Positions 446 to 28,471 of a DNA stretch of 32,000 nucleotides are shown here, in pieces; the stretch's first letter is position 1; the number at the start of each line of letters is the position of its first letter. A program made the position numbers and the translations under genes. The notes under the pieces are model-generated. The model had not been told where the DNA came from and did no database searches. It saw nothing but the letters and a program-made list of their open reading frames with translations. The stretch is from Ktedonobacterales bacterium (GTDB taxonomy: Bacteria; Chloroflexota; Ktedonobacteria; Ktedonobacterales; JADMIN01): NCBI GenBank assembly GCA_030167145.1, contig CP126532.1:1410001-1442000 (forward strand), in the 5' to 3' direction.

Positions 446-671
446 CGCACGCCTCCTCTCCACACCGGTTGTGATAGGTATACCATCCCATGGGCGTCCG
501 TCGAACGCCCGTGCAAACAGAATGCGTTTATGCCTGAAGGGCTGCACGCACCCGGCGGTCTTTGCGTGGCGCATATACTATATCGAGTACATACGACTCT
601 ATGGACAGCATACCGCATCGCGCACCTATCTCATACTGCGAGATTGTCGCGGAGACGAAGGTGGAGACCGA

Positions 672-1055
672 GTGAGCATCGTAAGCCGCTATGTTTGGTG
701 GCCGGGGCATGATGCGGGCGGTTTGCTGCCGCCGGTGGATGTGCTGGCGGGTGTGCTGGCTCCGGCGATGTGGCGTGTGCCGTCTTCGTGGCCGCCGCTG
801 ACCGCCGATGAGGCGCTGGTGTATGTGCCGCCGCAGTGGATCGGCGATTGGGAGCACGGGCACGCGCTCGCGCCAGGCTACCAGCATGTGTGGCGTGTAG
901 CGGTGGCGGCGCTGCTGCCGCTGTCGTCCGCGCCACGAACTGCGCCGTATCGGCCCGCGACCCTGCCAGAGACGGCGACGGGGCCACGGCGCATTGGGGT
1001 ATGGAGCCGTGCGCGGCGGAGTCGTGGTGAACGGGGTGGTGATGGTAGTAGGTAA
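672..1055 (+). CDS. Hypothetical small Trp/Pro-rich protein (127 aa) upstream of and overlapping the FHA-PrsW gene
   Basis: In-frame GTG at 672 lies 5 nt after GAAGGTGGAG (657..666). Third codon positions are strongly G/C, with the same ccg/gtg/ctg/gcg usage as the downstream gene. The stop at 1053..1055 overlaps the next gene start. I recognise no homology. Confidence 0.4.
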   Translation: MSIVSRYVWWPGHDAGGLLPPVDVLAGVLAPAMWRVPSSWPPLTADEALVYVPPQWIGDWEHGHALAPGYQHVWRVAVAALLPLSSAPRTAPYRPATLPETATGPRRIGVWSRARRSRGERGGDGSR

Positions 1056-2835
1056 GCGGTTGCGATTGGGGTGGCGACACGAGTCGTTGCCTACGCTAGA
1101 GGTGCTGGGGACGCCCAGCGTTGCGGTGCTGCGGGCGCGTGAATACGGTATCGGCATCGCCGATAGCGCAGACGTGCGCGGGCTGCGTGGTGGACGGGTG
1201 TTTCTGGCGGGCGGGCGTGTCTTTGCCATCTCTGGTGATGTGGCGACCCTGGGCCGCGACCTAAAGAATAGCGTGGTGCTGCTCGATCCCGCCGTCTCGC
1301 GCGAACACGCGCGGCTGCGACGCATCGCCGGCGGCTGGCTGGTCGAGAATGCGTCGGCGCGCGGGCCGGTCTGGGTGGGTGAGCGGCGGCTCGCGCCCGG
1401 CGAGATGACGGAGATTTTGCCAGGGGAATGGCTGACACTCGGCGACACGCAACTGCAATTCCTCGCGCCGGAGCTACGCGCCAGCGCAGCGGACACACCA
1501 GGTGAAGCGCCAGCGGGCAGCAGCGGGACGCGCGTGCTGGGGCTGGGGATCACGCTGCAATTCGCGCTGCGCGAGAAGCGCGGCGCACGCGCGTGGTGGG
1601 CCTTCGCGCTGGTCGTTCTGGGACTGCTGCTGGCGAGCGCGCTGGTGACGTTGGGCACGGTGGCTCTGGTGGGGCGCGACGCGGCGGCGGCCAGTGGCGT
1701 TGGGCATGTGCTGGCGGCGCTGACGATTCCGCTAGCGCCCGCGCTGGGCGCGCTCCTGTTGGTCGCGGCGTTCGACCGCTACGAGCGCGAGCCGTGGCTG
1801 CTGCTGCTGGGCGCATTCGTGTGGGGCGCGCTGGTGGCTATCCCACCGGCGTTTTTCGTGGAGCATGCGGTGAGCGGGCTGCTGCTGGGGATAGTTCCCA
1901 CTGCGGCGGGACCGCTGCCAGGGTTGGGCGCGGCGGCGGCGCAGGCGCTGAGCGCGGGCCTGACGGAAGAAGTGACCAAGGGCGCTGGGCTGCTGCTGCT
2001 GATCTGGGCGCTGCGCGATGAATTCGATAATGTCACCGATGGCATTCTCTATGGATTGCTGATCGGCGCGGGGTTTGCGATGGTGGAGAACTTCGTGTAT
2101 TTCGCGCAGAGTCCCGGTGGCAGTCTTCCGGTGCTGATTGCGGGGCGGGTGGCGCTTGGCTGGCTGAGCCATTCGACATTTACGGCATTCTTCGGCGCGG
2201 GGCTGGGCTATGCGCGCGAGCAGAAGCGGCGATGCATCCTGTGGCTGGCGCCGCTCGGTGGGCTGGCGGTAGCCGTGCTATTGCATATGGAGTTCGATTT
2301 TGTGGCGTTCGCGGCGGATGTGCTGGCGCGACAACCGTTGAGCGCGCAGGATATGCATCTGCTGGCGCTCTGCGCGACGACGCTGGCGTATCTGCCGCTC
2401 TTTGGGGCGCAGGCGGTGCTCTTGTGGCTGCTGCTGGGCGCGCTCCGGCGCGAAGCGGCGATTGTGCGGGAGTACCTTGCGCCAGAGGTGGTGGCAGGCA
2501 CGGTGCTGCCCGATGAGTACGCGCTGATGCAGCGGGCGAAGCTGCGTGGGCGGGCAGAGCGGCGGGCGCTCTTCGAGTTTGGCGCGCGCCCATATCTGAC
2601 GGCGCGGGCGCTGCACCAGACGATCACGGGGTTGGCGTTTCGCGCGTGGCACGTGGCGCAGGGCGATCCGCCCAAGCGCGGGACGATCCAACCCGAAGAC
2701 GCCTACCGCACGCGCATTGCCAGGCTGCGCGCGTCGCTGCTGCGGCAGACGCTGGCGGCATATGCGGCGGATGAAGCGAATGGGGCGGGCGACGATGCGC
2801 TTGAGGACACCATCGGCGAAGAGGCGGACGATTAG
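994..2835 (+). CDS. FHA domain fused to a PrsW-family intramembrane protease
   Basis: 613-aa ORF; the start may instead be ATG 1042. The FHA core is at about nt 1200..1470 (ATLGRD...VSREHARL...WLVENASARGPVWVGERRL...LTLGDTQLQF). It is followed by about 8 TM helices carrying PrsW motifs: LTEEVTKGAGLL (EExxK), GFAMVEN, HSTFTAFFG and LLHMEFDF (HxxxD). Confidence 0.9.
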   Translation: MGYGAVRGGVVVNGVVMVVGKRLRLGWRHESLPTLEVLGTPSVAVLRAREYGIGIADSADVRGLRGGRVFLAGGRVFAISGDVATLGRDLKNSVVLLDPAVSREHARLRRIAGGWLVENASARGPVWVGERRLAPGEMTEILPGEWLTLGDTQLQFLAPELRASAADTPGEAPAGSSGTRVLGLGITLQFALREKRGARAWWAFALVVLGLLLASALVTLGTVALVGRDAAAASGVGHVLAALTIPLAPALGALLLVAAFDRYEREPWLLLLGAFVWGALVAIPPAFFVEHAVSGLLLGIVPTAAGPLPGLGAAAAQALSAGLTEEVTKGAGLLLLIWALRDEFDNVTDGILYGLLIGAGFAMVENFVYFAQSPGGSLPVLIAGRVALGWLSHSTFTAFFGAGLGYAREQKRRCILWLAPLGGLAVAVLLHMEFDFVAFAADVLARQPLSAQDMHLLALCATTLAYLPLFGAQAVLLWLLLGALRREAAIVREYLAPEVVAGTVLPDEYALMQRAKLRGRAERRALFEFGARPYLTARALHQTITGLAFRAWHVAQGDPPKRGTIQPEDAYRTRIARLRASLLRQTLAAYAADEANGAGDDALEDTIGEEADD

Positions 2836-3443
2836 GGCTTCGCGGCGGGAGCAAACGCCAGGGTAAGGCTGCCATCGGTTGAGGTGATACCAGTGAGAAG
2901 GTAGCGTGCGGAGCCGATCTTCAGGCTGTTGGCCACATCGCCGATCTTGCTATCCAGCGCCGATGCGAGCGCGTCGTCTACGGCGGCGGGCAGGGGCAGA
3001 CCGCCGACGGTGGCGCTGAGGATGCGCGCGGCGGGCGCGCCATTCGCCACACTGAGTTGCGCCGTGACGGCGAGGCGGCGCGTGGGCGTGCCAGGGAGCA
3101 GTGTGGCGTCGCCGGAGATAGCAATCATATCGTTGGCGGCGATATGCGCCTGAAGATGACTGACGCTGAACGGCAACCCGGCCTGCGCGATGGCGGCGGA
3201 GCCGACGCTGGTGAGAAAGGCGTCATCCACGGTGAGGGTGGCCGCGCCGGAAGTGGCCGCGGAGACCTGCGTCGCGGGGGTGGGCTGCGGCGCGAGGTAG
3301 ATCAGCCCAACCACCGCCAGCAAGATACCACAGAGCAGGCCGCCAACCGCCCAGAACGCGTTCGTCCACCAGCGGCGCGGGCGCTGCTGGGGCGCGGGCG
3401 CGTTGCGGTCAACGCGGGTGGTCTGTTGGTTGGCGGTCAGCAT
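2832..3443 (-). CDS. Single-pass membrane-anchored hypothetical protein (possibly DUF2993/LmeA-like); last gene of the operon
   Basis: 203-aa ORF with AAAGGGAA RBS upstream of ATG 3443. It has a basic N-terminus, one TM helix (FWAVGGLLCGILLAVVGLIYL) and an Ala/Ser/Thr-rich beta-type ectodomain. The family assignment is only a weak impression. Confidence 0.7.
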   Translation of the reverse strand: MLTANQQTTRVDRNAPAPQQRPRRWWTNAFWAVGGLLCGILLAVVGLIYLAPQPTPATQVSAATSGAATLTVDDAFLTSVGSAAIAQAGLPFSVSHLQAHIAANDMIAISGDATLLPGTPTRRLAVTAQLSVANGAPAARILSATVGGLPLPAAVDDALASALDSKIGDVANSLKIGSARYLLTGITSTDGSLTLAFAPAAKP

Positions 3444-3502
3444 GGCGGTTCCCTTTCATACAGGCGCCCTGGATGGTGTGTGGCGCGCGTGGCAGCGCAC
3501 CG

Positions 3503-4774
3503 CTAGCGCCCGACGAGCGGCGGACGCGGACCGTAGCCGCCGCGCGATGTGATGTAGAGCGCGGTGGCCAGCAGCGCGAAGAGCAGCGCCAGCGCCGAGA
3601 AGGTGTCGAGCAGTGGCGGTGTTTTGCGCGGGATCGTGACGGTGAGCGGCGATTTCTGCGTGCCGTTTGCCGGGAAGGTGACGGCGCCAGCTTTGGCGCA
3701 GACGCCGTATGCGGCGCCGTTGGCGAGCACGGTGAAGGTCACCTGGAAGTTTCCTGACCCGTCGGTTTTCGCCGTTCGCTGCTGTACTGCCGTCGTGGTA
3801 CATGGCTGGTTGGAAGGCACGACAAAGACGGTGATCTGTGTCCCGTTGGGCCAGTGTTGCCCGGTCACCGTGATAGATGTCTCCTGGGTGGTGATAGGCG
3901 TGGACTGGCGCGTTACGGAAGCAGGCACGCAACTCGACTTCGCGACCGAGAGACACGGCGTGGGGACGATGATGACCAGCGGCGATGGCTGTGTGCTTTT
4001 CGATGGGAATATCGTTATGCCATCGGTGGTCTTGGCGCAGACGCCGAAGTTCCCTCCGGTCGCGGGCGCGATGAGTGCGGTAGTGAATGTGGCGTCAGTG
4101 CCTACCGTCGCCGCTTGAGATGATGCTGATGTTGGGACGCTGCATGGCTGACCACCAGGCACGAGGAAGACGGTGACTTGTGCGTCGCTTGGCCAGTATT
4201 GTCCCGCCACATTGACCGTTGTCCCCGGCGGGACAGTGGGGGATGATTGCTGCGTTGTGTTAGCAGGTATACAATCCAAATCCCCGATGGCCAGACAGGG
4301 CATGGGAAGTTCGACGGTCAGCGGCGATGCCTTTGTGTTATCTGCTGGGTATATCGTTGCGCCATCAGTAGTTTTGGCGCAGACGCCGTATACGACGCCG
4401 CTCGCGAGCGCGCTGAAGCTCGCGCTGAAAGTCTCTTTTCCGTCAACTTGCTCCAACTGGGATGTTCCCAATGGTGGGGTACTGCATGGCTGACCACCAG
4501 TGACAAGGAAGACAGAGACTTCTGAGCCGACTGGCCAGCGTTCCCCCTTCACGACGAAATTGGGCGTGGGCACCTTAACGAGTTTGGAGTTCGTTTCCGT
4601 ATTGTCTATGCACCCCGAGTCCCCGATAGACAGGCAGGGTGCGGCGGAATTTGACCCACGCATGGATGCATGCGGGTGATGCTGGGTCGCGGGCGCCGCA
4701 AAACCCGACCCAACCGCCAACACGAAGGTCAAGAGCAACAGCACGCTAAATGAGAGCAGCGACCGTCTGAACAT
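3503..4774 (-). CDS. Secreted, C-terminally membrane-anchored protein with three tandem ~113-aa Cys-containing Ig-like repeats
   Basis: GAGGAGG RBS before ATG 4774. Signal peptide MFRRSLLSFSVLLLLTFVLAVGSGFA. Three repeats share PCL-x5-C ... G-x-W/YWP ... VFLV..GQPC ... YGVCAKTTDG.TI.P....SPL. The C-terminus has a TM helix (FSALALLFALLATALYI) and a basic tail. Confidence 0.85.
   Translation of the reverse strand: MFRRSLLSFSVLLLLTFVLAVGSGFAAPATQHHPHASMRGSNSAAPCLSIGDSGCIDNTETNSKLVKVPTPNFVVKGERWPVGSEVSVFLVTGGQPCSTPPLGTSQLEQVDGKETFSASFSALASGVVYGVCAKTTDGATIYPADNTKASPLTVELPMPCLAIGDLDCIPANTTQQSSPTVPPGTTVNVAGQYWPSDAQVTVFLVPGGQPCSVPTSASSQAATVGTDATFTTALIAPATGGNFGVCAKTTDGITIFPSKSTQPSPLVIIVPTPCLSVAKSSCVPASVTRQSTPITTQETSITVTGQHWPNGTQITVFVVPSNQPCTTTAVQQRTAKTDGSGNFQVTFTVLANGAAYGVCAKAGAVTFPANGTQKSPLTVTIPRKTPPLLDTFSALALLFALLATALYITSRGGYGPRPPLVGR
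3629..4639 (-). repeat. Three tandem intragenic repeats (period 339-342 nt, 113-114 aa) inside the surface protein gene
   Basis: The identical 15-mer TTGGCGCAGACGCCG recurs at 3693, 4032 and 4374 on the + strand, with spacings of 339 and 342 nt. At protein level, 4 Cys per unit are conserved in register. Confidence 0.8.
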
Positions 4775-4820
4775 GGTACGCCTCCTCTGAGTCTTTGGTA
4801 TCTCGGAGCGATAGCGATGG

Positions 4821-6134
4821 TTAGATCACGTGGAACGCCGACAGGATGATGAGCAGGGCGATGAAGATGGCGATAGACCAGACCACCACCGTGCCTACCG
4901 AACCGCTGCGCTTAGCTTTGGTTGCGGGGACTGGCGGCAAGGGCTGCGAGTAGGGCTGCGCGGGCCAATTTGGGTTGGGACGGGGTGTTGCGGGACTGAC
5001 TGGTAGCTGATATTGCGCCCGGCCCGGCTGCGCCGTGGAATTGCTGGGCGCGGGTCCGGCCGTCGCGATGGGCACCCTCGCGCCAAGTGGCTTGGACATC
5101 TCCGCGGGTGGCGGCGGCACGAAGGCACGCGGCGTAGCGGTCAGCGGCACACTGGCCGCAGCCCCTTTGCCGCTAGCGATGTCGGCGAGCGAGCGCGGCA
5201 TGCGGCGCTGCTCCAGCGCGGCGCGCAACTCGCGGACATAAGGTTCCACTGGAGCGCCGCATTTGGCGCGCATGCGCTCGATGTTGCTGGTGGCCAGGGT
5301 GGGGTTGTCGTAGTCGTCGCGCGAGAAGAGCAGCCGCTCGTCTTCGCGTGCGCCCAATTCGTTGTAGAGCGCCGGACGGATGGAGATCGCCAGCAGCGAG
5401 AGGTAGATCACCAGCGCAGAGAAGCGGTCCATCTCGGCGTCGAAGGGGCGGTTCGCGGGGTTGGGCTTGTCGCCCGGCCGGAAGAACTGCGGATGCTGAA
5501 ACGGCTTGTGGCCGCATTCGGTCTGCGCCTTGCCCGCCAGCAGCGGCACCCACATGTTGTCGTAGTCAATCAGCCGCAGTTGGGGTTGTCCGCCCGCCTC
5601 CTGGATCAGCACATTGGTCAGGTCGAGGTCGCCGTGCGCGATGCCCACCGCTTCAAGCTGGCCGATCATCTGCCGCCATGCCTCGCCGAGCGTGCGCATG
5701 CGGTTGGTATCGTTATAGTAGTCCGCGATGTAGCTGCCCAGCCGTCGGGTGTTATTGAGCCACTGCGTTTTGATGACCGGACGCCAGTTTTTGGCGACGT
5801 AGATACCATGCTCGACATAGGTCGTCGGGATGAGCGCGGGAACCTCGGCCTGTTTCGCGGTAATGTACTGGCTGATCCGCTGATAGCGCTCGACAATATC
5901 AGTGGGCGGATTGATATGCTCATCAATATTGGAGCAAAAGCAGCGGGCCTGAAAGTTGCCAAGCTTATAGAAGGTGATGTAGAGGCCTGCGCCGCCGTAG
6001 CGCGCGGGGCCACCGGTGGGCATCGTCGCGAGATTGGCGGCTTTCAGCTCGGCGTCGTTGACGTTGGTGCGCCACTGCTTGATGGCCTCGTCGTATTCCG
6101 GCCGGGTGGGCCAGGTTGGCTTCCAGTCAGCCAT
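4821..6134 (-). CDS. Protein-kinase-like (PKL) fold phosphotransferase with Pro-rich linker and C-terminal tail anchor
   Basis: 437 aa. Catalytic loop HGDLDLTNVLI (HxDxxxxN) and metal-binding LIDYDNMWVP (DFG-equivalent Asp). Gly-rich YGGAGLY near the N-lobe. The C-terminal ~110 aa are Pro/Ala-rich and end in the TM helix VVVWSIAIFIALLIILSAF. Confidence 0.85.
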   Translation of the reverse strand: MADWKPTWPTRPEYDEAIKQWRTNVNDAELKAANLATMPTGGPARYGGAGLYITFYKLGNFQARCFCSNIDEHINPPTDIVERYQRISQYITAKQAEVPALIPTTYVEHGIYVAKNWRPVIKTQWLNNTRRLGSYIADYYNDTNRMRTLGEAWRQMIGQLEAVGIAHGDLDLTNVLIQEAGGQPQLRLIDYDNMWVPLLAGKAQTECGHKPFQHPQFFRPGDKPNPANRPFDAEMDRFSALVIYLSLLAISIRPALYNELGAREDERLLFSRDDYDNPTLATSNIERMRAKCGAPVEPYVRELRAALEQRRMPRSLADIASGKGAAASVPLTATPRAFVPPPPAEMSKPLGARVPIATAGPAPSNSTAQPGRAQYQLPVSPATPRPNPNWPAQPYSQPLPPVPATKAKRSGSVGTVVVWSIAIFIALLIILSAFHVI

Positions 6135-6168
6135 GCGTTTCTTCTCTCTATCGCATCACATCGGCGCG

Positions 6169-7491
6169 CTATTCGATGGGGATGACGAGCAAGGTGTAGT
6201 CATCTTTGTCCATGCGGCCGGTCTGGTATTCGCGCTCCACGAGCTGTTCGAACTCTGCCTGGTCGCGCATGGTAAGCGCGAGGTGCCAGTCGGGCGTGAA
6301 GGCGTCCGCGCCGTTGCTGGTGACATGTTTCGCGCGTTTGCCATTCGCGGCCAGGGATTGCGCGAGCAGCCACTTGGCGACGCTATCGGTGGCGAGCACC
6401 ACCAGATCGCCGCGCTGCACATCTTCGTCGTACACCTTGACCGACGACACCATGCGCTTGACTATATCGGACGAGTTGTCGGTGATGAGCGTGCTGGGGG
6501 TGTCGTTGAATTGCCCAGGGTCGTTCAATGGCCTGGCGGCTTTGAGTCGCCAGTCGCCGCCACGTCCGCTGAAGATCAGGCATTCAGAGTCGCCGACGGC
6601 GGTGACTGCCACATGTTTGCCGTTCAGGGCGCAGGCGACCAGCGTAGTCTGCGCGTTGCTCTTCCAGACTTCGCTGAGCCAGTAGGTCAGGGTGGGGTTG
6701 CCTGATGGCTCAGTGGAGAGCTTTGCCGCCCAGTGTTCATACATCCACAGACGCCAATCGCGCCTGCACGCGGAGAGCCAGCGAGCGAAGTCTTTCGAAT
6801 CGCTAAACGTTGGCTCGCGCTGGACGAAGTTGCGTGCGACAATGCGCGCCCACGGCGCAGGCATTCTACTATTGCTCACGCCATCGGTGACGGCGTAGAT
6901 ACCCCGGCTGCTATCGCAGGCGAAGCCATCCTGGCAGAGTTGTGATTTGTCTTTCGATACCCTGAACAGACGAACGTTGTTGCCCAATTGCTCGCCCGAC
7001 AGATCGAAGAGTTGGTCGTTCTCGAAGGGCGACCTGGGATCAGGAGGGGTGGCGCTCGTGGGGCCAGTCATCGGCGCCCGCTGATTGGGCAACGTCCGTG
7101 GCGCTTCGGGCAGCACCGGCATCGGCGCGGGCATCGGCATGTACGGATTGGTGGCGTTGGGATCAGCGCCGCCGTTGCGCTGGCCAGGCTGTTTGCTGCT
7201 CATGACGACGATTGGCGCTGACACGTCACTCCACACCCAGCGGATGAAGATGATGATGCCCCAGAGCATGGCGATGATGGCGAGCAGGCGCACGGGTCTC
7301 TGCGTATTATCAGCAGTTTGGTTATTGAGCAGGCTGGCCAGCGCGCAGGCGATGGTGGCGCAGGCGAGGATCAATCCCACACGCTTGGTGGCCAGCAGCC
7401 GCTTGCGCTGGGCGGGTGATAGCTGCGGTGGTGGGGGCAGAGTCGCGGGGGGATTGGCCCGCGATGTAGGTGGAAGATGCGATAATGACAT
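6169..7491 (-). CDS. Membrane-tethered PP2C (PPM)-family phosphatase-like protein
   Basis: GGAGG RBS 6 nt before ATG 7491. The N-terminus has a two-helix TM hairpin (VGLILACATIACALASLL; LLAIIAMLWGIIIFIRWVW), then a Pro/Met-rich linker. The PP2C-like blocks are CQDGFAC..GIYAVTDGVSNS, TTLVACALNGKHVAVTAVGDSECLIF, GDLVVLATDSVAKWL and DDYTLLVIPI. Confidence 0.85.
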   Translation of the reverse strand: MSLSHLPPTSRANPPATLPPPPQLSPAQRKRLLATKRVGLILACATIACALASLLNNQTADNTQRPVRLLAIIAMLWGIIIFIRWVWSDVSAPIVVMSSKQPGQRNGGADPNATNPYMPMPAPMPVLPEAPRTLPNQRAPMTGPTSATPPDPRSPFENDQLFDLSGEQLGNNVRLFRVSKDKSQLCQDGFACDSSRGIYAVTDGVSNSRMPAPWARIVARNFVQREPTFSDSKDFARWLSACRRDWRLWMYEHWAAKLSTEPSGNPTLTYWLSEVWKSNAQTTLVACALNGKHVAVTAVGDSECLIFSGRGGDWRLKAARPLNDPGQFNDTPSTLITDNSSDIVKRMVSSVKVYDEDVQRGDLVVLATDSVAKWLLAQSLAANGKRAKHVTSNGADAFTPDWHLALTMRDQAEFEQLVEREYQTGRMDKDDYTLLVIPIE

Positions 7492-7536
7492 GAAGCGCCT
7501 CCTACGGTGTCGAGAGCGCGTAGCCGCGCGAGACGA

Positions 7537-8454
7537 TTACCAGCCGCCGACGGTGCCCTGGGTGCCCCAGCGCAAGAATTCGGCGAGGAGTTGGGCATTG
7601 GCGTTGTAGACAAACGTGTGCGCGCCCGGCGGCACCTGGCGCCCGTGGGTGATGCGCGCGGCTTTCTCGCGCAACAGATCGGGCATGATGCTGCTCATGT
7701 TGAACATCGTGACGGCGGTAGGGTGCAACTGCACGAGTTCGGCGGGACTGGATGGGAAGACGAGCGGCTGCCGCCGATCTTTGGTGATGTGGCAGGTGAA
7801 GATCAGGCAGTTGCCCTGGCTAGTGCCCTGGCTGCGAATCGCGGCGGCGACCGCCTCAGGATCGCCCTCGCCGTTGTGCTCGGCGTCGGTGATGTTGATG
7901 ACGACGGGCGGAAAGCATTCATGCCGCGCGGCTTGCCCTGGCTCTTGCGGCGGCAGCGGCATGGCGGTATCGAGCCAGCGCTGGATGATGAACTGCGCCT
8001 GCTGCAACGCTTTGGCCATCTGGGTGCGGCCCTCGGCCTTGGGCTGGTCAATCCAGTAGGGCGCGGTGACGATGGCGGTGCGGTAGGTGTTGGCGCCACT
8101 ATCAAAGATGGCGCGCTGCACCTCTTGTGTGCCGACGAAGTGCTGCGAGAGGTAGCGAATATCCAGCGGTTCTCCCGGAGGGCCTCCGGGGCGGTTGAGA
8201 ACCGACATAACCGAATCGTTGTAGCCGAAGACGCTGATATAGGCGAGCTTCTTGACCTGATTGCTGTCGTCCACGCCCGCCGCGTCACACATCGTGGCGA
8301 TCAGCTCGTTGACGGCGGCGGTGGCGTAGTCGGCTTTGGTGAGCTGCTCGCCTTCCACCTGCTCGCTCATCGAGCCAGATTGATCGAGCAGCACGACGAA
8401 CAAGCCCGGACGCTGCCGGGTGAGCCGCTCAGTGTAGTATGCGCGAGTTTCCAT
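7537..8454 (-). CDS. von Willebrand factor A (vWA) domain protein with intact MIDAS (TerY-like)
   Basis: The track ORF starts at 8481, but AAGGGGGGA precedes ATG 8454 (METRAYY...). MIDAS residues are VVLLDQSGSMS (DxSxS), EGRTQMAKAL (Thr) and VVINITDAEHNG (Asp). No TM segment or other domain is visible. Confidence 0.9.
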   Translation of the reverse strand: METRAYYTERLTRQRPGLFVVLLDQSGSMSEQVEGEQLTKADYATAAVNELIATMCDAAGVDDSNQVKKLAYISVFGYNDSVMSVLNRPGGPPGEPLDIRYLSQHFVGTQEVQRAIFDSGANTYRTAIVTAPYWIDQPKAEGRTQMAKALQQAQFIIQRWLDTAMPLPPQEPGQAARHECFPPVVINITDAEHNGEGDPEAVAAAIRSQGTSQGNCLIFTCHITKDRRQPLVFPSSPAELVQLHPTAVTMFNMSSIMPDLLREKAARITHGRQVPPGAHTFVYNANAQLLAEFLRWGTQGTVGGW

Positions 8455-8523
8455 CAGTGCAATCCCCCCTTGGTGAACCATGTCAATGTTGAGCGGGCGC
8501 GAAATAATGCCAAATAATGCCGG

Positions 8524-9201
8524 TTAGCTCATATTGGGCGCAACATCAATGCGCCGGGCGAAGAAGAAGGCGATGGATGCGGTCACGCCGAAGGTGAGCA
8601 GGGTGGTGGTCGGGAAAATAGCGAAGATGTCGCCGGGGCCGGGGTGCATCGGCAGCAGCGAATCGGAATTGACGAAGGAGCAGAGGATATTCCCCGCGAT
8701 AATGCCCAGGATGCCGCCCAGTGTGCAGAGGATCAGCGACTCGCCGACGAGCATGCCGATGACTTCCTCCTGGTGATCGCCACCCTGGCGCTCGATGCCG
8801 ATGGCGCGGCGGCGCTGGCTGGTGTTGACCCACGTGACGATGCCCACCAGCGCGGCGGTAAAGCCGATAGCCAGCTTGGTGAGCAGGCTGCGCGTGGAAT
8901 CTAGCACTGACTGAATCTCATGGATGTCCACGCCCGATTGAATCAACAACTGCGCCTGCCCCGGCCTGTTGGTCTTGAGCAAACCGTCGATCTTGGTCTG
9001 AATGCCATTGCTGGCGGCGATGATGGCAATGGCGATGCACACCCCGACGAGAACGGCGATGACGATGGAAGCCGCGCGCCAGGGCTGATCTTTGATGTTG
9101 CGCAGGATGCGGTAGAGCCAGAAGCCAACCGTGCGCTGCTGCCGCGTTTTGATGGCGCGCTTGGCCGGACCGCGTGAAGGAGATGCGCTATAGGGTTGCA
9201 T
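8524..9201 (-). CDS. FtsX/MacB-type ABC permease, minimal 4-TM form with a very short extracytoplasmic loop
   Basis: 225 aa. TM1 is AASIVIAVLVGVCIAIAIIAA, followed by a ~45-aa loop. The FtsX-domain signature is SQRRRAIGIERQGGDHQEEVIGMLVGESLILCTLGGILGIIAG, and a final TM helix follows. Confidence 0.85.
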   Translation of the reverse strand: MQPYSASPSRGPAKRAIKTRQQRTVGFWLYRILRNIKDQPWRAASIVIAVLVGVCIAIAIIAASNGIQTKIDGLLKTNRPGQAQLLIQSGVDIHEIQSVLDSTRSLLTKLAIGFTAALVGIVTWVNTSQRRRAIGIERQGGDHQEEVIGMLVGESLILCTLGGILGIIAGNILCSFVNSDSLLPMHPGPGDIFAIFPTTTLLTFGVTASIAFFFARRIDVAPNMS

Positions 9202-9266
9202 AGGAGATGGCCTTTGCTGATCCGTTTCTGTCGTTCAATGCGTGCGCATGTGGGATGCGCGGCCCC

Positions 9267-10307
9267 TCATGGCTGCTGGGCGGGTCCGCGTACCAGCGGC
9301 GAGTAGCGCAGGTCGCTCTTGATATGCCCGTTTTCCAGCAGGATGACGCGGTGAAAGCGATCCATCAGATTTGGCTGGTGCGCGATCACCACCACCGTGT
9401 ACCCCTCCGCCGCGAGATCCTGAAAGAGATCTACCGTGTTGATCCGCGATTCCTCGTCCAGCGCGGGGAGAATCTCGTCGCTGAGGCAGATGGGGCGCTC
9501 GGCGGCATAGGCTTTGCCAATCGCCACACGTGCCCACTCACCACCAGAGAGCGTTTTGATGGTCGCTTCGAAACGCTCACGGAGGAGGCGCGCCTTAGTC
9601 AGCCCCACTTCAGCCCGGCGGGCGCCTTCATCCAGTGGGATACCCTCGAAATCATAGAGCAGGCGACGGATGCACTCGACCGGCGTGAGAATGTCTATCA
9701 GCCCCAGCCCTTTCTGAGGAATATAGGTGATGCCGCCGCCGCGCAGATCGTCACGCGCATGCGCTGAGAGCGCGCCGACATTGCGATCCAGGATGTGCAA
9801 CTGTCCGCGCTCAATCTCGGTTTCGAGCGCGAGCATGCGGATGAGGGTGGATTTTCCCGATCCACTGGGGCCACCGATGTAGGTCAACTCACCGGGATAG
9901 ATCCGCAGATCAGGAATAGAGAGGGTGAAGCCCGTTTTCTCAAAGTGCGAATAGAGTCCCTGGATGACGATAGTGGGCGTCTCACGTGGAGGTGTGTAGG
10001 GAACTGGCTTGACGTTTGTTCCCGCCACTACGTATCCGCCCAATTGTTGTCCCGGTCCAGTCGGAGGCATAGAGCGCCATAGTGGTACGGGAGGCTGAAT
10101 TGGGACCGGCCCAGGTCCAGTCGGAGTGAGCCTCGATCCGCCGACGGGTTTGGGCAACGGTGGCGGCGGAGGCGCGCCCCATGGCGGTGCGGCTGGCGGC
10201 TGTTGCGCGGGGTATATATTCTGCATCGGCTTGCCCAGAGGTTTTGAGAGCGGTGGTCCATTGGGATGCTGATTGTTGGGATCGTGGGCCATGTCGCTGC
10301 CTCTCAT
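9267..10307 (-). CDS. ABC transporter ATP-binding protein (FtsE/MacB/LolD-like) with ~110-aa Pro-rich N-terminal extension
   Basis: Walker A GGPSGSGKST, signature LSGGEWARV, Walker B ICLSDE, H-loop VVVIAHQ. The N-terminus is low complexity (PPAAPPWGAPPPPPLPKP...). The start may be ATG 10292 (MAHDPNN), which is preceded by GAGAGG. Confidence 0.9.
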   Translation of the reverse strand: MRGSDMAHDPNNQHPNGPPLSKPLGKPMQNIYPAQQPPAAPPWGAPPPPPLPKPVGGSRLTPTGPGPVPIQPPVPLWRSMPPTGPGQQLGGYVVAGTNVKPVPYTPPRETPTIVIQGLYSHFEKTGFTLSIPDLRIYPGELTYIGGPSGSGKSTLIRMLALETEIERGQLHILDRNVGALSAHARDDLRGGGITYIPQKGLGLIDILTPVECIRRLLYDFEGIPLDEGARRAEVGLTKARLLRERFEATIKTLSGGEWARVAIGKAYAAERPICLSDEILPALDEESRINTVDLFQDLAAEGYTVVVIAHQPNLMDRFHRVILLENGHIKSDLRYSPLVRGPAQQP

Positions 10308-10514
10308 ACAAAGAAACAGTGCTATTCGCAGTGGCGCGAATGTCTCACGCGCGCTGTGTAGCGTCTGCCGGAAGAGTTCACCAAGCGCAGTCTACACTAC
10401 AATGGTTGGGCTTGTCTAGTAGCACTGCATCGTGGCTTGAAATTGGGCGCGAGTGGCACGGCGAGCGGCACGTGTTGCAATCTATTCAGCGAGTACGCTG
10501 CAACGCGAACACAC

Positions 10515-10542
10515 TTGCGCTTGCCTCCTCTCATGCTACACT
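10515..10542 (+). promoter_or_regulatory. Candidate sigma-70-type promoter for the ornithine cyclodeaminase gene
   Basis: TTGCGC (10515..10520), a 16-nt spacer, then TACACT (10537..10542), about 70 nt upstream of ATG 10615. The same hexamer pair recurs at 17597..17625. This is pattern-based only. Confidence 0.3.
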
Positions 10543-10614
10543 AACTCTAACGAAGTTCCGTGCAGAAGTAACACATCGCGAGGTGAAACGCGCGATAGTC
10601 CAAAGGGGGCGCCT

Positions 10615-11604
10615 ATGCTGATTCTGACGAGCGCTGATCTGCGGCGAGCCATCTCGATGGCAGAGGCGATAGCAGTGACCACGGATGCTTTCGCGCAGCT
10701 TTCCAGCGGGCAGGCACGGATGCCGCTGCGCCCGCGCGTGGAGATGACCGAGCATGACGGTGTGTTGCTGCTGATGCCCGCCTATCTCGCGGGTAGCGGT
10801 GCGCTGGGCCTGAAGGCGCTCACCCTCTACCCCCAGAATCCCGCGCGGCATGGGTTGCCCGCAATCGCGGCGGTGGTGCTGCTCTTCGCGAGCGAGACCG
10901 GCCGCCCGCTGGCGCTGCTGGATGCTGGCGAACTGACGGCGCTGCGCACCGGCGCGGCCTCTGGCGTAGCGACGCAACTGCTAGCGCGAGACGATGCCCG
11001 CACGCTGGCGATCTTCGGCGCTGGCGCGCAGGCGCTACCGCAGGTGTGGGCCGTGTGTGTCACGCGCAACATTGAGCATGTCGTTGTCATCAATCGCACG
11101 CATGAGCATGCTGAGCGGCTCGCGGCGGCGCTACGCGCTTTCGGGCCGCCGGTGCCGGGCGATGTGCGGGTCGCTGCCAGCGTCGCCGACGCGTTGCGCG
11201 ATGCCGATGTCATCTGCTGCGCGACCGCATCACCCACGCCGCTCTTTGCCGATGCGGATCTCAAGCCGGGGACGCATATCAACGCCGTCGGCGCGTACCT
11301 TCCGGCGATGCGCGAGGTTCCCGGCGCGACAGTGGCGCGTGCGCGCGTGGTGGTGGATGCGCGCGACGCGGCAGGCGCCGAGGCGGGCGAGTTGGTCATG
11401 GCGCGCGAGGAAGGATTGATCGGCGCGGAGTATCCCGTGGCAGAGTTGGGCGAAGTCGCGCTTGGCCGGATGGCGGGCAGGCTGGATCCAGCTCAGATCA
11501 CGCTCTTCAAGTCGGTGGGCGTGGCCGCGCAAGACATCGCCGTGGCCCAGGTCGCCTACGCGCGAGCGCGTGAGTTGGGCCTGGGCACGGAGGCAGCTTT
11601 TTGA
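10615..11604 (+). CDS. Ornithine cyclodeaminase / mu-crystallin family protein
   Basis: The track ORF starts at 10453, but AAAGGGGG precedes ATG 10615 (MLILTSADLRRAISMAEAI...). Family features include LKALTLYPQNP, LTALRTGAASG, the Rossmann motif LAIFGAGAQA, and THINAVGAY. Confidence 0.9.
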   Translation: MLILTSADLRRAISMAEAIAVTTDAFAQLSSGQARMPLRPRVEMTEHDGVLLLMPAYLAGSGALGLKALTLYPQNPARHGLPAIAAVVLLFASETGRPLALLDAGELTALRTGAASGVATQLLARDDARTLAIFGAGAQALPQVWAVCVTRNIEHVVVINRTHEHAERLAAALRAFGPPVPGDVRVAASVADALRDADVICCATASPTPLFADADLKPGTHINAVGAYLPAMREVPGATVARARVVVDARDAAGAEAGELVMAREEGLIGAEYPVAELGEVALGRMAGRLDPAQITLFKSVGVAAQDIAVAQVAYARARELGLGTEAAF

Positions 11605-11622
11605 TACTAAGGTAGTCCGGTG

Positions 11623-12474
11623 TTAGTCCAGACCGGCGAAGATATCCGTTTCGGGGGTCGGGTAGGCACGGTCGGAGATGGGCGGCGGCACGAGTTGCAA
11701 CACCTCCGCGCCCATCATCGCGCGCAACTGCTCCGGCGGCATCTTCGCCCAGGGGCTGTCCTTGGGCAACTGCGTCGCGTGCTGGCTAAGCGCAGTGTAC
11801 TTCGCCGCGAACTCGTCGTCGGTTAGACGAATCCAGGTGGTGATGTCGCGCTCTGGTGTGCCCATCTCTTCGATGGGAAGCGTCGCCTCATCGCCGCCAG
11901 GAATGAAATCCTGGCCAGCGGCGCGCGCTTCGTCGCGCATCTTCAGGATGCGTTCGCGGGGCATCGCACCGTAGTAGACTTTGCGCGGGCGGTGTGGCCG
12001 CAAGCCATCGCGAATCTGCTCTGGATAGCGCACCGGGTCGGCGGCAGCGGCGAGCGCCGCCAGCGTCAGGCGGTGGATCGCCATGTGGTCTACGTGGCCA
12101 TAGCCGCCGTTGGGCGCAAAGGTGATCACCACATCGGGACGGAAGCGACGCAAATGATAGACGATGCGCCCGGTGGCCTCATCAACATCAGCCTCGGCCA
12201 CGTGGCCGTCAATATAGTCGAGGAACGAGACATCGGTGACGCCGACGGCGGCGCAGGCCCGGCGTAGCTCTTGCTCGCGCACCTGGCCCAGGTTCTCTGG
12301 CGTAGCCAGCGCGGGATCGGCGATCTGTCCCTCTTCGCCACGGGTGGCGCAGACCACCGCCACGGGATGCCCAGCGCTGGTCGCGCGGCGCATCAGGCCC
12401 GCCGTGCCAAAGGCTTCGTCGTCGGGGTGCGCCCAGATGCCCATCAATCGAAGCGTCGCCGCTGCCGCTGTCAT
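11623..12474 (-). CDS. PIG-L/LmbE-family deacetylase, MshB/Mca-like
   Basis: GAGGAG RBS precedes ATG 12474 (MTAAAATLRLMGIWAHPDDEAFG...). It has the zinc motifs AHPDDE and GGYGHVDH. The size (~283 aa) and the C-terminal ETDIFAGL tail resemble MshB/Mca-type enzymes as I remember them. Confidence 0.85.
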   Translation of the reverse strand: MTAAAATLRLMGIWAHPDDEAFGTAGLMRRATSAGHPVAVVCATRGEEGQIADPALATPENLGQVREQELRRACAAVGVTDVSFLDYIDGHVAEADVDEATGRIVYHLRRFRPDVVITFAPNGGYGHVDHMAIHRLTLAALAAAADPVRYPEQIRDGLRPHRPRKVYYGAMPRERILKMRDEARAAGQDFIPGGDEATLPIEEMGTPERDITTWIRLTDDEFAAKYTALSQHATQLPKDSPWAKMPPEQLRAMMGAEVLQLVPPPISDRAYPTPETDIFAGLD

Positions 12475-12608
12475 CGCGTTGCTCCTCACTGAAAAGTCTA
12501 CGCCGCCGGTTGGTGGCGGAATGGTCAATGCTATCCAGAAGGAAGTGTACCCGATGCGGTCCAGGTTGGGCTACCGACACATGGCAGAGCAAGCATTGAC
12601 GGCCGCCT

Positions 12609-13124
12609 CTACGACCCCCAGATGGTAGGCAAATGATATCCGCCCATGCCGACGGCCAGTTCGCCGCCGTGGTGCATATCGTGCCTGAGCACGTGCCAGA
12701 TGATCTCTTGTCGTGTGCTCGGGCCGAATATCTGGCGTTCCCTTTCGGTCAACGCGGCGGGTGGGGCAAATACGTGTCCGAGGTCGGCGACGGTCCAGCG
12801 GGCGAGAGCATTCTCGATCATACCCCACGTGGCCTCAAGTCCAGCGACCAGTTCGGCTGTCGAATGCGCCACCTGCCCTGTCTCCTCTTCCTCCCAGTGC
12901 ATGAAGGAAGCAGCTTCTGGACTTCCCTCACCCATCCACAGATTGAACCACCAGATCCGGTCGTTGAGGATGTGCTGGACGAGCATTCCAATCGGCCAGT
13001 GCGTAGAGGCCACGGGCAACGCCAGTTGCTCGGAAGAAAGCGGCGCGACAGCCCGGAGCAGGTCGCGTTGAAATCTGTCCCAGCCTTGAAAGACGGCAGT
13101 AAGCGGAAGCGCGGACTCTGACAT
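12609..13124 (-). CDS. DinB-family (DinB/YfiT-like four-helix-bundle) protein
   Basis: GGAGGAA RBS precedes ATG 13124 (MSESALPL...). His-triad-like residues are HWPIGMLVQHI and HVLRHDMHHGGEL. Confidence 0.8.
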   Translation of the reverse strand: MSESALPLTAVFQGWDRFQRDLLRAVAPLSSEQLALPVASTHWPIGMLVQHILNDRIWWFNLWMGEGSPEAASFMHWEEEETGQVAHSTAELVAGLEATWGMIENALARWTVADLGHVFAPPAALTERERQIFGPSTRQEIIWHVLRHDMHHGGELAVGMGGYHLPTIWGS

Positions 13125-26480: not shown

Positions 26481-26726
26481 GGCCACGCTCCTTGCAGGGT
26501 AAGCAAGCAAAACACTTAAGCGCAGTATACACTCTAGCACGTGCCTTTGCCGTGTGATAGGAGCGAGAAACGCTGACTGCTGCGGACTCCTGACCCTTTC
26601 GATTGTGTCCATCCCGCGCCCACTGAATATGTAAATCTGCAGCAGTGTGAACACTTTGCATCTGTGCCTGTATCTCATATCTTGAAGGGTGAAGATGCTG
26701 GAGTATGCGGGCGTGGGTGAAGAGCA

Positions 26727-27314
26727 ATGAACGACGAGCGAGACCTGCCGGTCACCGGGGACGCGAACAGCTTTGCTGCCATCGTGCCGCTCTATGCCGC
26801 TGCCATGCTGCGCCTCGCCGCCGCGCTCCTTGGCCCAGCGGAAGCCGAAGACGCCGTGCAAGAGGCCTCGCTGCGCGCGTGGCAAGCCTGGTCCACACTG
26901 CGCAATGTGGATGCGGTGCGCCCCTGGCTGCTGCAAATCACCCTGAACGTCTGTCGGCAGTGGCGGCGTGGCCTCAAAGGGCGGCAACAGGCGCACATGC
27001 AGCCGCTGCCCGACGATGCCGATGCCGAGCAAGTCCATCCTCTTGCTTTGCTCGATGCCGACCCTGGCACGAGCAATCATACCGGGGCGCTGGACCTGCG
27101 GGCCGCCATCAATGCGCTTCCCAGTGACCTGCGTATCGTCGTCGTCCTGCGCTTCTATGCTGGTCTCGACGCCACCGAGATTGGGCGGGTGCTCAGCATT
27201 CCGGCGGGCACGGTGCGTTCGCGGCTGCATCGCGCCTTCACGCGGATGCGCGACCAACTCCAGCCGCCTGGCCTGGCGCATACCACGTTCCCTGAGAAGG
27301 AGGGCCGCTCATGA
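26727..27314 (+). CDS. ECF-type (sigma-70 family group 4) RNA polymerase sigma factor
   Basis: Region 2 reads AEDAVQEASLRAWQAW..LRNVDAVRPWLLQITLNVCRQWRR. Region 4 reads LPSDLRIVVVLRFYAGLDATEIGRVLSIPAGTVRSRLHRAFTRMR. Confidence 0.9.
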   Translation: MNDERDLPVTGDANSFAAIVPLYAAAMLRLAAALLGPAEAEDAVQEASLRAWQAWSTLRNVDAVRPWLLQITLNVCRQWRRGLKGRQQAHMQPLPDDADAEQVHPLALLDADPGTSNHTGALDLRAAINALPSDLRIVVVLRFYAGLDATEIGRVLSIPAGTVRSRLHRAFTRMRDQLQPPGLAHTTFPEKEGRS

Positions 27315-28471
27315 GCGAAGAGCCAAACGCCCTCAACCATCATCATCGGCCTGACGAATCAACTTCTGATCTCATGCTTCCTCCTGAATTCGAGGAACTC
27401 GCAGCGCGCCTGACCGCTGACGGTGCCGCATGGCAGCGTCACCTGCCAGATTCAGCGCGAGCGGCCGGGCGTATCCGTGCCATCCCGCATACCTCACCGC
27501 TCACTGCCTCTGAAGGAGGTGTTCCTATGTCTCAAGATATGCAGTATCCGCCCACGCCTACTCGCCCAAACCCTGACAACCGACGACAGCCAACGGGCGC
27601 GCGACGCTCGCGGGGCATCCTGGCGCTGGTCGCTGCGGTAGTCGTGGTATCGCTGTTTGCTACCGTGCTGGTAACGCTGGCGAATCAACGGAGCCAAACC
27701 GCCGGGCAGCCAACGCCGTCTCTATCGGTACCGACCCAGCCCATCCCGCCCACAGGCGTCTCGCCCACGAGCACCCCGCCCGCCACACCGACCATGGCCT
27801 CAGGCGCGTTCACCGTCACATCGGTCACGATGGCGGTCACGCCCGCATCAATCGCCAATACCTATTGTGGGGCGCAGATGACCGTGACCTATACGGCAAC
27901 CATGCACGTCGCGCCCAACAGCCCCGGCGGGACCGTCCAGTTCGGCTATACCATCAACAACGGCCGTGGACAGACCAATACCAGCCTCACGTTCAACCCA
28001 GGCGACACCAGCAAAACATACACCTTTACATGGAGCGGCGCGCTGCCCGCCGATCATACCTATCCTCAGCCAGGCGGCGTACAGGTGACCAGCCCCAATC
28101 AACTAACCTCAGCCCTGCTCGCGCCCACGGGCCAGTGTACCCCTGTGACGGCCCCGACCTGCGGCGCCAATTTCTCTGGCCAGCCCTATCAGAATACGCT
28201 GACGACCGATTTTGGCACCGTGCCGCTGCCGCCATACTCGCTCACAGTGCCCGATGACGCCTCCGGCGGACAGCGCGGCGCCGATGTGTGCAGCGCGGGA
28301 ACCACCGCAATGGTCACCGCGTTCATGGAGCAAAATCTGCCCGCTTATGGCTGGACGTTCGTGAGCAAGAGCGGCGGCATCGAGACCTGGCAGAGTAGCA
28401 AAGGCACGATCAACGTGAACATTGCTGATCCGCTCAACTGGATCATCAGTTGGCGTGTGCCGCTCGGATAA
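27311..28471 (+). CDS. Single-pass membrane protein translationally coupled to the ECF sigma factor (putative anti-sigma factor)
   Basis: ATGA start/stop overlap at 27311..27314. It has a ~105-aa cytoplasmic N-terminus, TM ILALVAAVVVVSLFATVLVTLA, a Pro/Thr linker and a ~230-aa Cys-containing ectodomain. No HxxxCxxC zinc anti-sigma motif is visible. Confidence 0.7.
   Translation: MSEEPNALNHHHRPDESTSDLMLPPEFEELAARLTADGAAWQRHLPDSARAAGRIRAIPHTSPLTASEGGVPMSQDMQYPPTPTRPNPDNRRQPTGARRSRGILALVAAVVVVSLFATVLVTLANQRSQTAGQPTPSLSVPTQPIPPTGVSPTSTPPATPTMASGAFTVTSVTMAVTPASIANTYCGAQMTVTYTATMHVAPNSPGGTVQFGYTINNGRGQTNTSLTFNPGDTSKTYTFTWSGALPADHTYPQPGGVQVTSPNQLTSALLAPTGQCTPVTAPTCGANFSGQPYQNTLTTDFGTVPLPPYSLTVPDDASGGQRGADVCSAGTTAMVTAFMEQNLPAYGWTFVSKSGGIETWQSSKGTINVNIADPLNWIISWRVPLG

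Follow-up and report, generated by a model that had tools for sequence, protein, structure and literature searches.

An FHA-fused PrsW-family membrane protease conserved across the Ktedonobacteria, and the apparently unrelated TerY-P-like cassette beside it

When a gene that fuses a forkhead-associated (FHA) domain, a reader of phosphothreonine (pThr), to a PrsW-type intramembrane protease is found beside the genes of a protein kinase and a PP2C phosphatase, do the three act as one signalling system? The question is raised by a stretch of 32,000 nucleotides (nt) from a Ktedonobacterales bacterium (GenBank assembly GCA_030167145.1, contig CP126532.1, positions 1,410,001 to 1,442,000 of the forward strand; the whole stretch is called the window below, and coordinates are its own), in which the fusion gene, here named FHA-PrsW, lies next to a cassette of kinase, phosphatase and associated genes. 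A first-pass annotation made from the sequence had proposed that the kinase and the phosphatase write and erase the pThr read by the FHA domain, with FHA-PrsW as the output arm of the neighbouring system. By comparing FHA-PrsW with its homologues, and by surveying the loci of both the fusion and the cassette in other genomes, we find that the fusion is borne out and that the proposed tie to the cassette has no counterpart elsewhere; how the FHA domain might govern the protease is weighed after the evidence has been laid out.

Both parts of the fusion are recognized by Pfam well above the curated cut-offs: in the 613-residue open reading frame (ORF), PF13367 (PrsW-protease) matches residues 266-443 over profile positions 1-179 of 196 (E=7.9e-37, 127.1 bits against a gathering threshold of 23.5), and PF00498 (FHA) matches residues 85-150 (E=5.2e-8, 33.6 bits against 20.7). 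PF16697 (Yop-YscD_cpl), a family of the same clan as FHA, also scores above its cut-off (37.5 against 33.2 bits). This ORF (994..2835, plus strand, TTG start) and the convergent 203-residue ORF (2832..3443, minus strand) are both present in the ORF list, and their stop codons overlap as had been described: positions 2830-2835 read gaTTAG, in which the plus-strand TAG (2833-2835) and the minus-strand TAA (2832-2834) have two bases in common. A scan for promoters and terminators around this convergent junction gave no signal exceeding shuffle expectation. The frame and the stop given at first stand; the start, TTG 994, is only the mechanical first one, as a 100%-identical database protein of 582 residues corresponds to a start at TTG 1087 (ATG 1042 is another alternative). 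Conservation among the homologues starts at about residue 10 of this 582-residue form, whose numbering is used from here on.

An AlphaFold2 (AF2) model built on an alignment of 120 homologues (49-60% identity to the window protein), the same alignment from which the residue counts below are taken, has a mean predicted local distance difference test score (pLDDT) of 87.4 and a predicted template modelling score (pTM) of 0.88, and divides the protein into a cytoplasmic FHA domain, a linker, an extra transmembrane (TM) helix termed TM0, the protease core and a C-terminal domain (Table 1). The PF13367 match begins at residue 235, well past TM0, to which PrsW of Bacillus subtilis presumably has no counterpart. 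In the model TM0 places the FHA domain in the cytoplasm, and the helix count predicts that both termini of FHA-PrsW are cytoplasmic. The C-terminal domain matches no Pfam family and carries many residues that are invariant in the 120 homologues (for example W521, H522, E537, Y540 and R543). A search of 1.84 billion representative proteins returned more than 100 proteins of about 370-420 residues that match query residues ~170-552, that is, TM0, the PrsW core and the C-terminal domain, and that lack an FHA domain because they are too short to contain one; since so many FHA-less homologues share these three parts, the ktedonobacterial proteins look like a PrsW subfamily that acquired an FHA domain. 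For the PrsW part no solved structure was found, all 50 of the Foldseek PDB matches shown (four at E <= 0.001) being FHA-domain structures.

The distribution of the gene bears directly on the question of its partners. A pattern scan over one genome per GTDB species returned 161 relatives of FHA-PrsW, the best 80 of which were retrieved together with flanks of at most 10 kb; these 80 GTDB species and three further contigs carrying one homologue make up the 83 loci considered here. All 80 fetched relatives belong to the Chloroflexota, and every one that is named below the phylum is a member of the Ktedonobacteria, including Thermogemmatispora, Dictyobacter and Tengunoibacter. FHA-PrsW is conserved across this class in housekeeping neighbourhoods: the genes for 2-oxoacid dehydrogenase E1-alpha, E1-beta and E2 and for lipoyl synthase (LipA) lie downstream in about 32 of the 83 loci, a DUF697 GTPase gene lies upstream in 20, and genes for CCA-adding enzyme, NAD kinase, prephenate dehydrogenase and glutamine synthetase are other recurrent neighbours.

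In the window itself the immediate neighbours of FHA-PrsW also belong to it. The 127-residue gene upstream, whose stop codon (1053-1055) is 32 nt ahead of TTG 1087, shares 58-62% identity over about 115 residues with ORFs that precede FHA-PrsW in L001, L007, L014 and L067, the closest relatives. The convergent 203-residue gene had been taken for the last gene of the kinase/phosphatase operon; it is instead assigned to FHA-PrsW, because its homologues adjoin FHA-PrsW tail to tail on the downstream side at the four closest loci, none of which has the cassette (L005, L007, L062 and L067), and in L007 and L067 the next gene is glutamine synthetase. A single TM helix divides its product into a short tail on the cytoplasmic side, which varies among homologues, and a conserved extracytoplasmic domain of about 150 residues. 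The idea of a conserved threonine in this tail as a ligand of the FHA domain was rejected, since the five homologues show no conservation there. Neither the 127-residue nor the 203-residue gene matches a Pfam or NCBIfam family, and one homologue of the latter has a weak DUF2140 match (E=1.7e-4). Judged from these comparisons, the native locus is a trio formed by the 127-residue gene, FHA-PrsW and the 203-residue membrane protein, and it is only in the window's genome that the cassette (3503-10307) borders on this trio.

The same conclusion is reached when the cassette genes are sought around FHA-PrsW. Searches with tblastn found no homologue of the cassette's vWA, PP2C, kinase, 423-residue or FtsX genes within 10 kb in any of the 83 loci, and in a Pfam analysis of 241 neighbour representatives within 5 kb no family with at least two members was a Pkinase, PP2C, VWA or FHA family. 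A protein kinase of any kind is present in 3 of the 83 loci, 5.5-7 kb away, and a PP2C gene in 1 (catalytic-loop and PP2C regular expressions, verified with Pfam); a further PP2C candidate from the regular expressions, in L064, was rejected on being recognized as KaiC. The survey that the first-pass annotation had called for, of how often such fusions occur beside kinase and phosphatase genes in other genomes, has therefore found no such association. Viewed from the side of the cassette, 58 loci carry the kinase family (a metagenome scan is included in this number); vWA, PP2C and kinase genes occur together in at least 41 of them, most of the others being truncated contigs, and FHA-PrsW is near only 1. 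The two sets of genes are not co-transcribed in the window, because they are convergent.

As a protease, FHA-PrsW retains the catalytic motifs of its family. The EExxK and HxxxD motifs noticed at first are confirmed (EEVTK, nt 1966-1980; HMEFD, nt 2284-2298), and all four catalytic motifs are present: E294-E295-x-x-K298, F330-x-x-x-E334 (FAMVE, nt 2074-2088), H362 (nt 2170-2172) and H400-x-x-x-D404. Because these four PrsW/CPBP motifs are invariant or nearly so in the 120 homologues (E294, E295, K298, F330, E334, H362 and H400 in all of them, D404 in at least 90%), FHA-PrsW is very probably an active protease, of the glutamic, CPBP type. The family (PF13367, designated M82 in JGI annotations) includes PrsW (YpdC) of B. 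subtilis, the site-1 protease of the anti-sigma-W factor RsiW, which resembles FHA-PrsW in its polytopic membrane core with EExxK, FxxxE, H and HxxxD. However, FHA-PrsW scores 59.7 bits against the NCBIfam equivalog of B. subtilis PrsW, NF033739, far below the cut-off of 225, and it is on this ground classed as a family member and not as an orthologue of the RsiW-cleaving enzyme. It further differs from B. subtilis PrsW by three additional parts (an FHA domain at the N terminus, TM0 and a C-terminal domain some 110 residues long), and no sigma or anti-sigma gene adjoins it. A nearby anti-sigma factor was also considered as substrate and rejected: with a hidden Markov model for extracytoplasmic-function (ECF) sigma factors, only 6 of 84 loci (the window and the 83 others) were found to have a gene of the sigma-70 family within 6 kb, and none of these genes is consistently adjacent. 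The only ECF-type sigma gene of the window (26721-27311, plus strand) is 24 kb from FHA-PrsW and not evidently related to it; its stop codon overlaps the start of the next ORF, which has 386 residues and no Pfam family and could encode the anti-sigma factor (the pair spans 26721-28471, plus strand).

The FHA domain requires a closer look, as its ability to bind phosphorylated peptides is central to any signalling role. A profile of the FHA region of the family matches the structures of GarA/Rv1827, OdhI, EmbR, DgcB and Rv1747 at E ~1e-8, the alignment to GarA needs no gap from the SxxH motif to the beta6-beta7 loop, and Foldseek gives target-normalised TM-scores of 0.66-0.73 to the FHA structures of OdhI, GarA, Ki67 and MDC1. 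The strands of the AF2 model (residues 45-126, pLDDT ~88-98) form the beta-sandwich typical of the fold, which in FHA domains has 11 strands. Key residues include G56-R57 (nt 1252-1257), S71-R72-E73-H74 (nt 1297-1308), N88 and S90; R57 is conserved in 119 of the 120 homologues, S71 and R72 in all, and H74 in 119. The core had been described at first as GR...SxxH...N, and of this the GR and SxxH elements are indeed present, whereas the N turns out to be N88 of the sequence VENAS, which is invariant among FHA-PrsW homologues and aligns with D112 of GarA, not with the loop asparagine N117. This canonical loop position, in which GarA N117 is what we take to be the equivalent of Rad53 N107, is occupied in the window protein by Gly93 (nt 1363-1365), which makes the protein an outlier within its own family. 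Of the three pThr-binding residues (Arg, Ser and Asn) whose absence had been named as evidence against a phospho-reader, Arg57 and Ser71 are thus kept and the loop Asn is gone. The loop asparagine of FHA domains touches the peptide backbone and not the phosphate, and certain functional FHA domains are without it. As far as alignment can tell, the FHA fold and the phosphate-contacting residues are intact, and one conserved peptide-contacting residue is missing in the window protein.

Between the FHA domain and TM0, the homologues share a juxtamembrane motif with the consensus P-G-[VI]-T-[LIM]-[QR]-[FY]-A-[LF], which reads LGITLQFAL in the window (nt 1543-1569). G154 and T156 (Thr156, nt 1552-1554) occur in 120 of 120 homologues, and a second threonine, Thr148, occurs in 82 of 120 in the context Thr148-x-[LV]-[LF]. 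Both threonines are followed by a hydrophobic residue at position +3, which is favoured by many bacterial FHA domains. In the AF2 model Thr156 sits where a helix predicted with confidence begins. Matches of the profile or the model among FHA structures include the pThr22 form of GarA (2kfu), phosphorylated OdhI (2kb3) and DgcB with its own phosphorylated tail (6hc1).

From these observations we hypothesize, at a probability of roughly 0.55, that substrates are recruited or gated by the FHA domain through pThr that kinases not linked to it have written, auto-regulation being included as a sub-case. The domain would dock a pThr-bearing cytoplasmic segment, which may belong to a membrane protein (the tail of a substrate or a regulator) or be its own linker, docking would gate or recruit substrates for intramembrane cleavage, and the phosphate would come from a Ser/Thr kinase encoded elsewhere in the organism's genome. 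That the FHA domain governs a signalling protease, as was also proposed in the literature for such fusions (PMC3482391), is a reasonable reading because the fusion is real and the phosphate-binding residues and the four catalytic motifs are kept; regulated intramembrane proteolysis under phospho-control, as proposed in the first-pass annotation, survives in this sense as a plausible reading, and the adjacent kinase and PP2C as its system find no support. Several points nevertheless weigh against our hypothesis. Position 93 is Asn in 102 of the 120 orthologues (85%) and Gly in only 2, of which the window protein is one, and phosphopeptide binding by the window's FHA domain may be weakened by this replacement; everything past the anatomy of FHA-PrsW, namely substrate, kinase and phosphosite, is what we infer. 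A kinase of the cassette family also lies 1.6 kb from FHA-PrsW in the metagenomic locus L134, the only such case among the 58. Finally, the cassette kinase and PP2C are anchored in the membrane as FHA-PrsW is, and cross-talk specific to this genome has a slim chance, much smaller than that of gating by the FHA domain throughout the class.

The case for the neighbouring kinase (4821-6134) and PP2C (6169-7491) as writer and eraser is made by their physical adjacency to FHA-PrsW in the window, by the membrane location of all three products (a C-terminal TM helix in the kinase, two N-terminal ones in the PP2C), by the HGDLDLTN and DYD motifs that the kinase family keeps, and by the homologous kinase fragment of L134. 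Set against these are the empty neighbourhoods of the 83 FHA-PrsW loci, the full triads in unrelated contexts without FHA-PrsW, the convergent orientation and the fact that the gene really abutting FHA-PrsW, the 203-residue one, is part of the native locus; the single co-occurrence among 58 looks compatible with chance for a kinase family of several copies, a back-of-envelope estimate from assumed values of copy number and genome size giving about 1% per locus. We consider this model very improbable. The L134 kinase-like ORF, moreover, is truncated at its N terminus, has no vWA or PP2C partner, follows a TnpB/IS605 gene and, as an insertion, separates FHA-PrsW from the usual E1 dehydrogenase operon. 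Gly93, so rare in the family, raises the alternative that the FHA domain acts independently of phosphate, as a constitutive docking or auto-inhibitory module in the manner of GarA on its enzyme targets or of YscD-type FHA folds, and this agrees with the best Pfam score being that of the YscD-type PF16697 and with a pTM that suggests packing of the FHA domain against the rest of the modelled protein. Yet the (essentially) complete invariance of Arg57, Ser71, Arg72 and the structural His74 would be hard to explain without phosphate binding, and most orthologues retain the asparagine, which leaves a phosphate-independent domain possible but unlikely. Within our hypothesis, the FHA domain may more specifically bind its own phosphorylated linker in cis or in trans (Thr148-x-x-L or Thr156-L-Q-F), with the effect of closing or opening the protease or of making it dimerise. 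The conservation of the two threonines with their hydrophobic +3 residues, the predicted flexibility of the linker and the structures of intramolecular pThr-tail binding in DgcB (6hc1) and GarA/OdhI (2kfu, 2kb3) speak for such a mechanism; Thr156, however, opens a confident amphipathic helix by the membrane and may be a structural N-cap beyond the reach of kinase or FHA domain, and we regard this sub-case as quite unlikely. A last candidate role, that of a PrsW protease for the export or processing of polymorphic toxins, releasing a fused C-terminal toxin as in some Gram-positive bacteria (PMC3482391), has almost negligible odds: the C-terminal domain is conserved, not polymorphic, and is common to FHA-less homologues of housekeeping type, Pfam gave no toxin or immunity match, and the same study states that FHA-fused versions are distinct from the toxin-associated ones.

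Table 1. Features of FHA-PrsW, of its native neighbours and of the adjoining cassette (window coordinates; residues of FHA-PrsW in the 582-residue form)
Feature	Position	Strand	Basis or remarks
FHA-PrsW gene	1087..2835	+	Pfam FHA and PrsW-protease; database protein P0001 identical; AF2 model
N-terminal beta strand	residues 13-17	+	AF2 model
Cytoplasmic FHA beta-sandwich (predicted)	1204..1467, residues ~40-127 (strands 45-126)	+	profile, Foldseek and AF2
Flexible linker (residues 128-153) and juxtamembrane helix (155-163)	1468..1581	+	pLDDT 57-68 in linker; helix in model
Extra N-terminal transmembrane helix TM0	1585..1695, residues 167-203	+	hydropathy 2.47; helix in model
PrsW/CPBP-type intramembrane protease core, 7 helices	1699..2493, residues 205-469	+	PF13367, invariant motifs
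Conserved cytoplasmic C-terminal helical domain (predicted)	2494..2814, residues ~470-576	+	helices 475-576, pLDDT >90
Small conserved hypothetical gene, 127 residues, GTG start, soluble, just upstream	672..1055	+	homologues in relatives
Convergent 203-residue type-II single-pass membrane protein	2832..3443	-	TM helix residues 26-55; homologues in relatives
Secreted, anchored 3-repeat protein, 423 residues	3503-4774	-	signal peptide, repeats, C-terminal TM helix
Kinase with Pro-rich linker and C-terminal TM anchor (residues 409-437)	4821-6134	-	PADLOC STK_OB 2.9e-41
PP2C with two N-terminal TM helices	6169-7491	-	PADLOC PP2C 7.7e-19
TerY-like vWA	7537-8481	-	PADLOC TerY 1.1e-34
FtsX-like permease	8524-9201	-	Pfam FtsX
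ABC ATPase	9267-10307	-	Pfam ABC_tran

Two further observations concern the surroundings of FHA-PrsW in other genomes. In the loci with the E1/E2/lipoyl synthase operon (~32 of 83; for example L034, 10096-14504, and L053, L058, L069, L071 and L074), which span Thermogemmatispora, Dictyobacter and Tengunoibacter, FHA-PrsW is located about 1 kb 5' of the operon and is co-directional with it. The closest solved relatives of its FHA domain, GarA and OdhI, regulate 2-oxoglutarate dehydrogenase, a curious coincidence beside an E1/E2 operon that could equally be inherited synteny. In L134, the interval 3015-13062 also carries genes for a RAMP protein and a TIR-SAVED protein and an unannotated 660-residue ORF, and this locus suggests that mobile or defence DNA can be taken up on the downstream side of FHA-PrsW.

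The cassette itself is of interest in its own right. TerY-P is known as a metal-sensing phosphorylation switch, with an OB-fold variant that is an anti-phage system (PMC10542128); the triad was described by Anantharaman et al. 2012 and the anti-phage TerY-P by Gao et al. 2020, as cited in PMC10542128 and PMC11090510. The window shares with it the consecutive genes for a TerY-like vWA protein, a PP2C and a Ser/Thr kinase (4821-8481), and the kinase family retains the catalytic-loop motifs. In contrast to the known triads, the window's kinase has neither the C-terminal OB fold of the defence type nor the Zn-ribbon of the classical type, its STK_OB match spanning only profile positions 3-259 of 562, and is tethered at its end by a TM anchor behind a Pro-rich linker, the PP2C carries two N-terminal TM helices, and the cassette adds ABC and FtsX genes upstream and a secreted repeat protein downstream. 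The order ABC-FtsX-vWA-PP2C-kinase-X, where X stands for the gene in the position of the 423-residue protein, is repeated in five contexts of kinase homologues with unrelated surroundings, and the sequence comparisons indicate that the cassette is a self-contained, membrane-anchored TerY-P-like variant separate from FHA-PrsW; it may be a distinct undescribed subtype of TerY-P.

Some details of the cassette and its vicinity may be added. The same gene order is seen in many contigs of Ktedonobacteria, in unrelated contexts. The 423-residue protein contains three tandem repeats of about 114 residues with four cysteines each (DNA period ~340 nt) and matches no Pfam family, and the gene at its position in related cassettes encodes 262 to 491 residues. 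As to marks of a mobile insertion, the window has no tRNA and no convincing direct repeats flanking the cassette. An inverted repeat of 26 nt (3575-3600 and 10865-10890, 88% complementary) roughly brackets it; one arm falls in the codons for the C-terminal TM helix of the 423-residue protein and the other in the ornithine cyclodeaminase gene, so that both are coding, and the repeat is probably due to chance in GC-rich DNA. FHA genes of other types are found near the cassette in L085, L117 and L140: in L085 (1655-5340), a Pkinase-FHA fusion, a stand-alone FHA gene and a Pkinase-Zn-ribbon gene are divergent from a complete ABC-FtsX-vWA-PP2C-kinase cassette, and in L117 a Pkinase-FHA gene is 3 kb from the cassette. 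The host genomes are presumably rich in FHA genes and Ser/Thr kinases. Such neighbours may be background in FHA-rich genomes, or may reflect a weak association of the cassette with FHA signalling.

Fusions of this kind are not new to the literature. Zhang et al. 2012 (Zhang, de Souza, Anantharaman, Iyer and Aravind; PMC3482391) listed PrsW proteins fused to FHA, PilZ, cNMP or Zn-ribbon domains as putative signalling peptidases, whose cleavage would be triggered by whatever signal the fused domain senses. FHA-PrsW belongs to the same class of architectures, and the logic proposed for it is the same; literature searches for 'PrsW' with 'forkhead-associated' returned nothing, and those for 'PrsW' with 'FHA' returned only comparative papers of the Aravind group as relevant. 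The fusion and its signalling reading have therefore been in the literature since 2012, and the window gene is a better-described example. That study only mentions the architecture, and what is added here is the distribution across the class, the juxtamembrane threonine motif, the extra TM helix, the C-terminal domain and the lack of linkage to a kinase. Among proteins that join an FHA domain to another function, DgcB of Bdellovibrio (FHA-GGDEF; 6hbz, 6hc0, 6hc1) fuses it to an enzyme and binds its own phosphorylated tail, and Rv1747 of Mycobacterium tuberculosis (FHA-ABC transporter; 6cah, 6ccd) fuses it to a transporter and binds a phosphorylated segment; both have other output domains and no intramembrane protease, and phospho-binding is demonstrated there, whereas it is predicted for FHA-PrsW.

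Comparative genomics, then, gives no support to the view that the neighbouring kinase and phosphatase drive FHA-PrsW, and sets the native three-gene locus apart from an unrelated TerY-P-like cassette. The Asn-to-Gly change makes the window protein a poor first choice for biochemistry. If the FHA domain gates the protease, Hanks-type Ser/Thr phosphorylation and regulated intramembrane proteolysis would be joined in one polypeptide, and the family, with orthologues in cultivable hosts (Thermogemmatispora, Dictyobacter and Tengunoibacter), would be a compact and conserved model. A more far-reaching proposal, which we put forward tentatively and consider unlikely on present evidence, is that FHA-PrsW would be a class-wide core regulator of the multicellular, spore-forming Ktedonobacteria, with the fused FHA domain as the direct link by which Ser/Thr phosphorylation gates cleavage in the membrane, perhaps with Thr156 or Thr148 read in cis or in trans; if true, this would be, to our knowledge, the first demonstrated case of intramembrane proteolysis under the control of an FHA phospho-reader fused to the protease itself.

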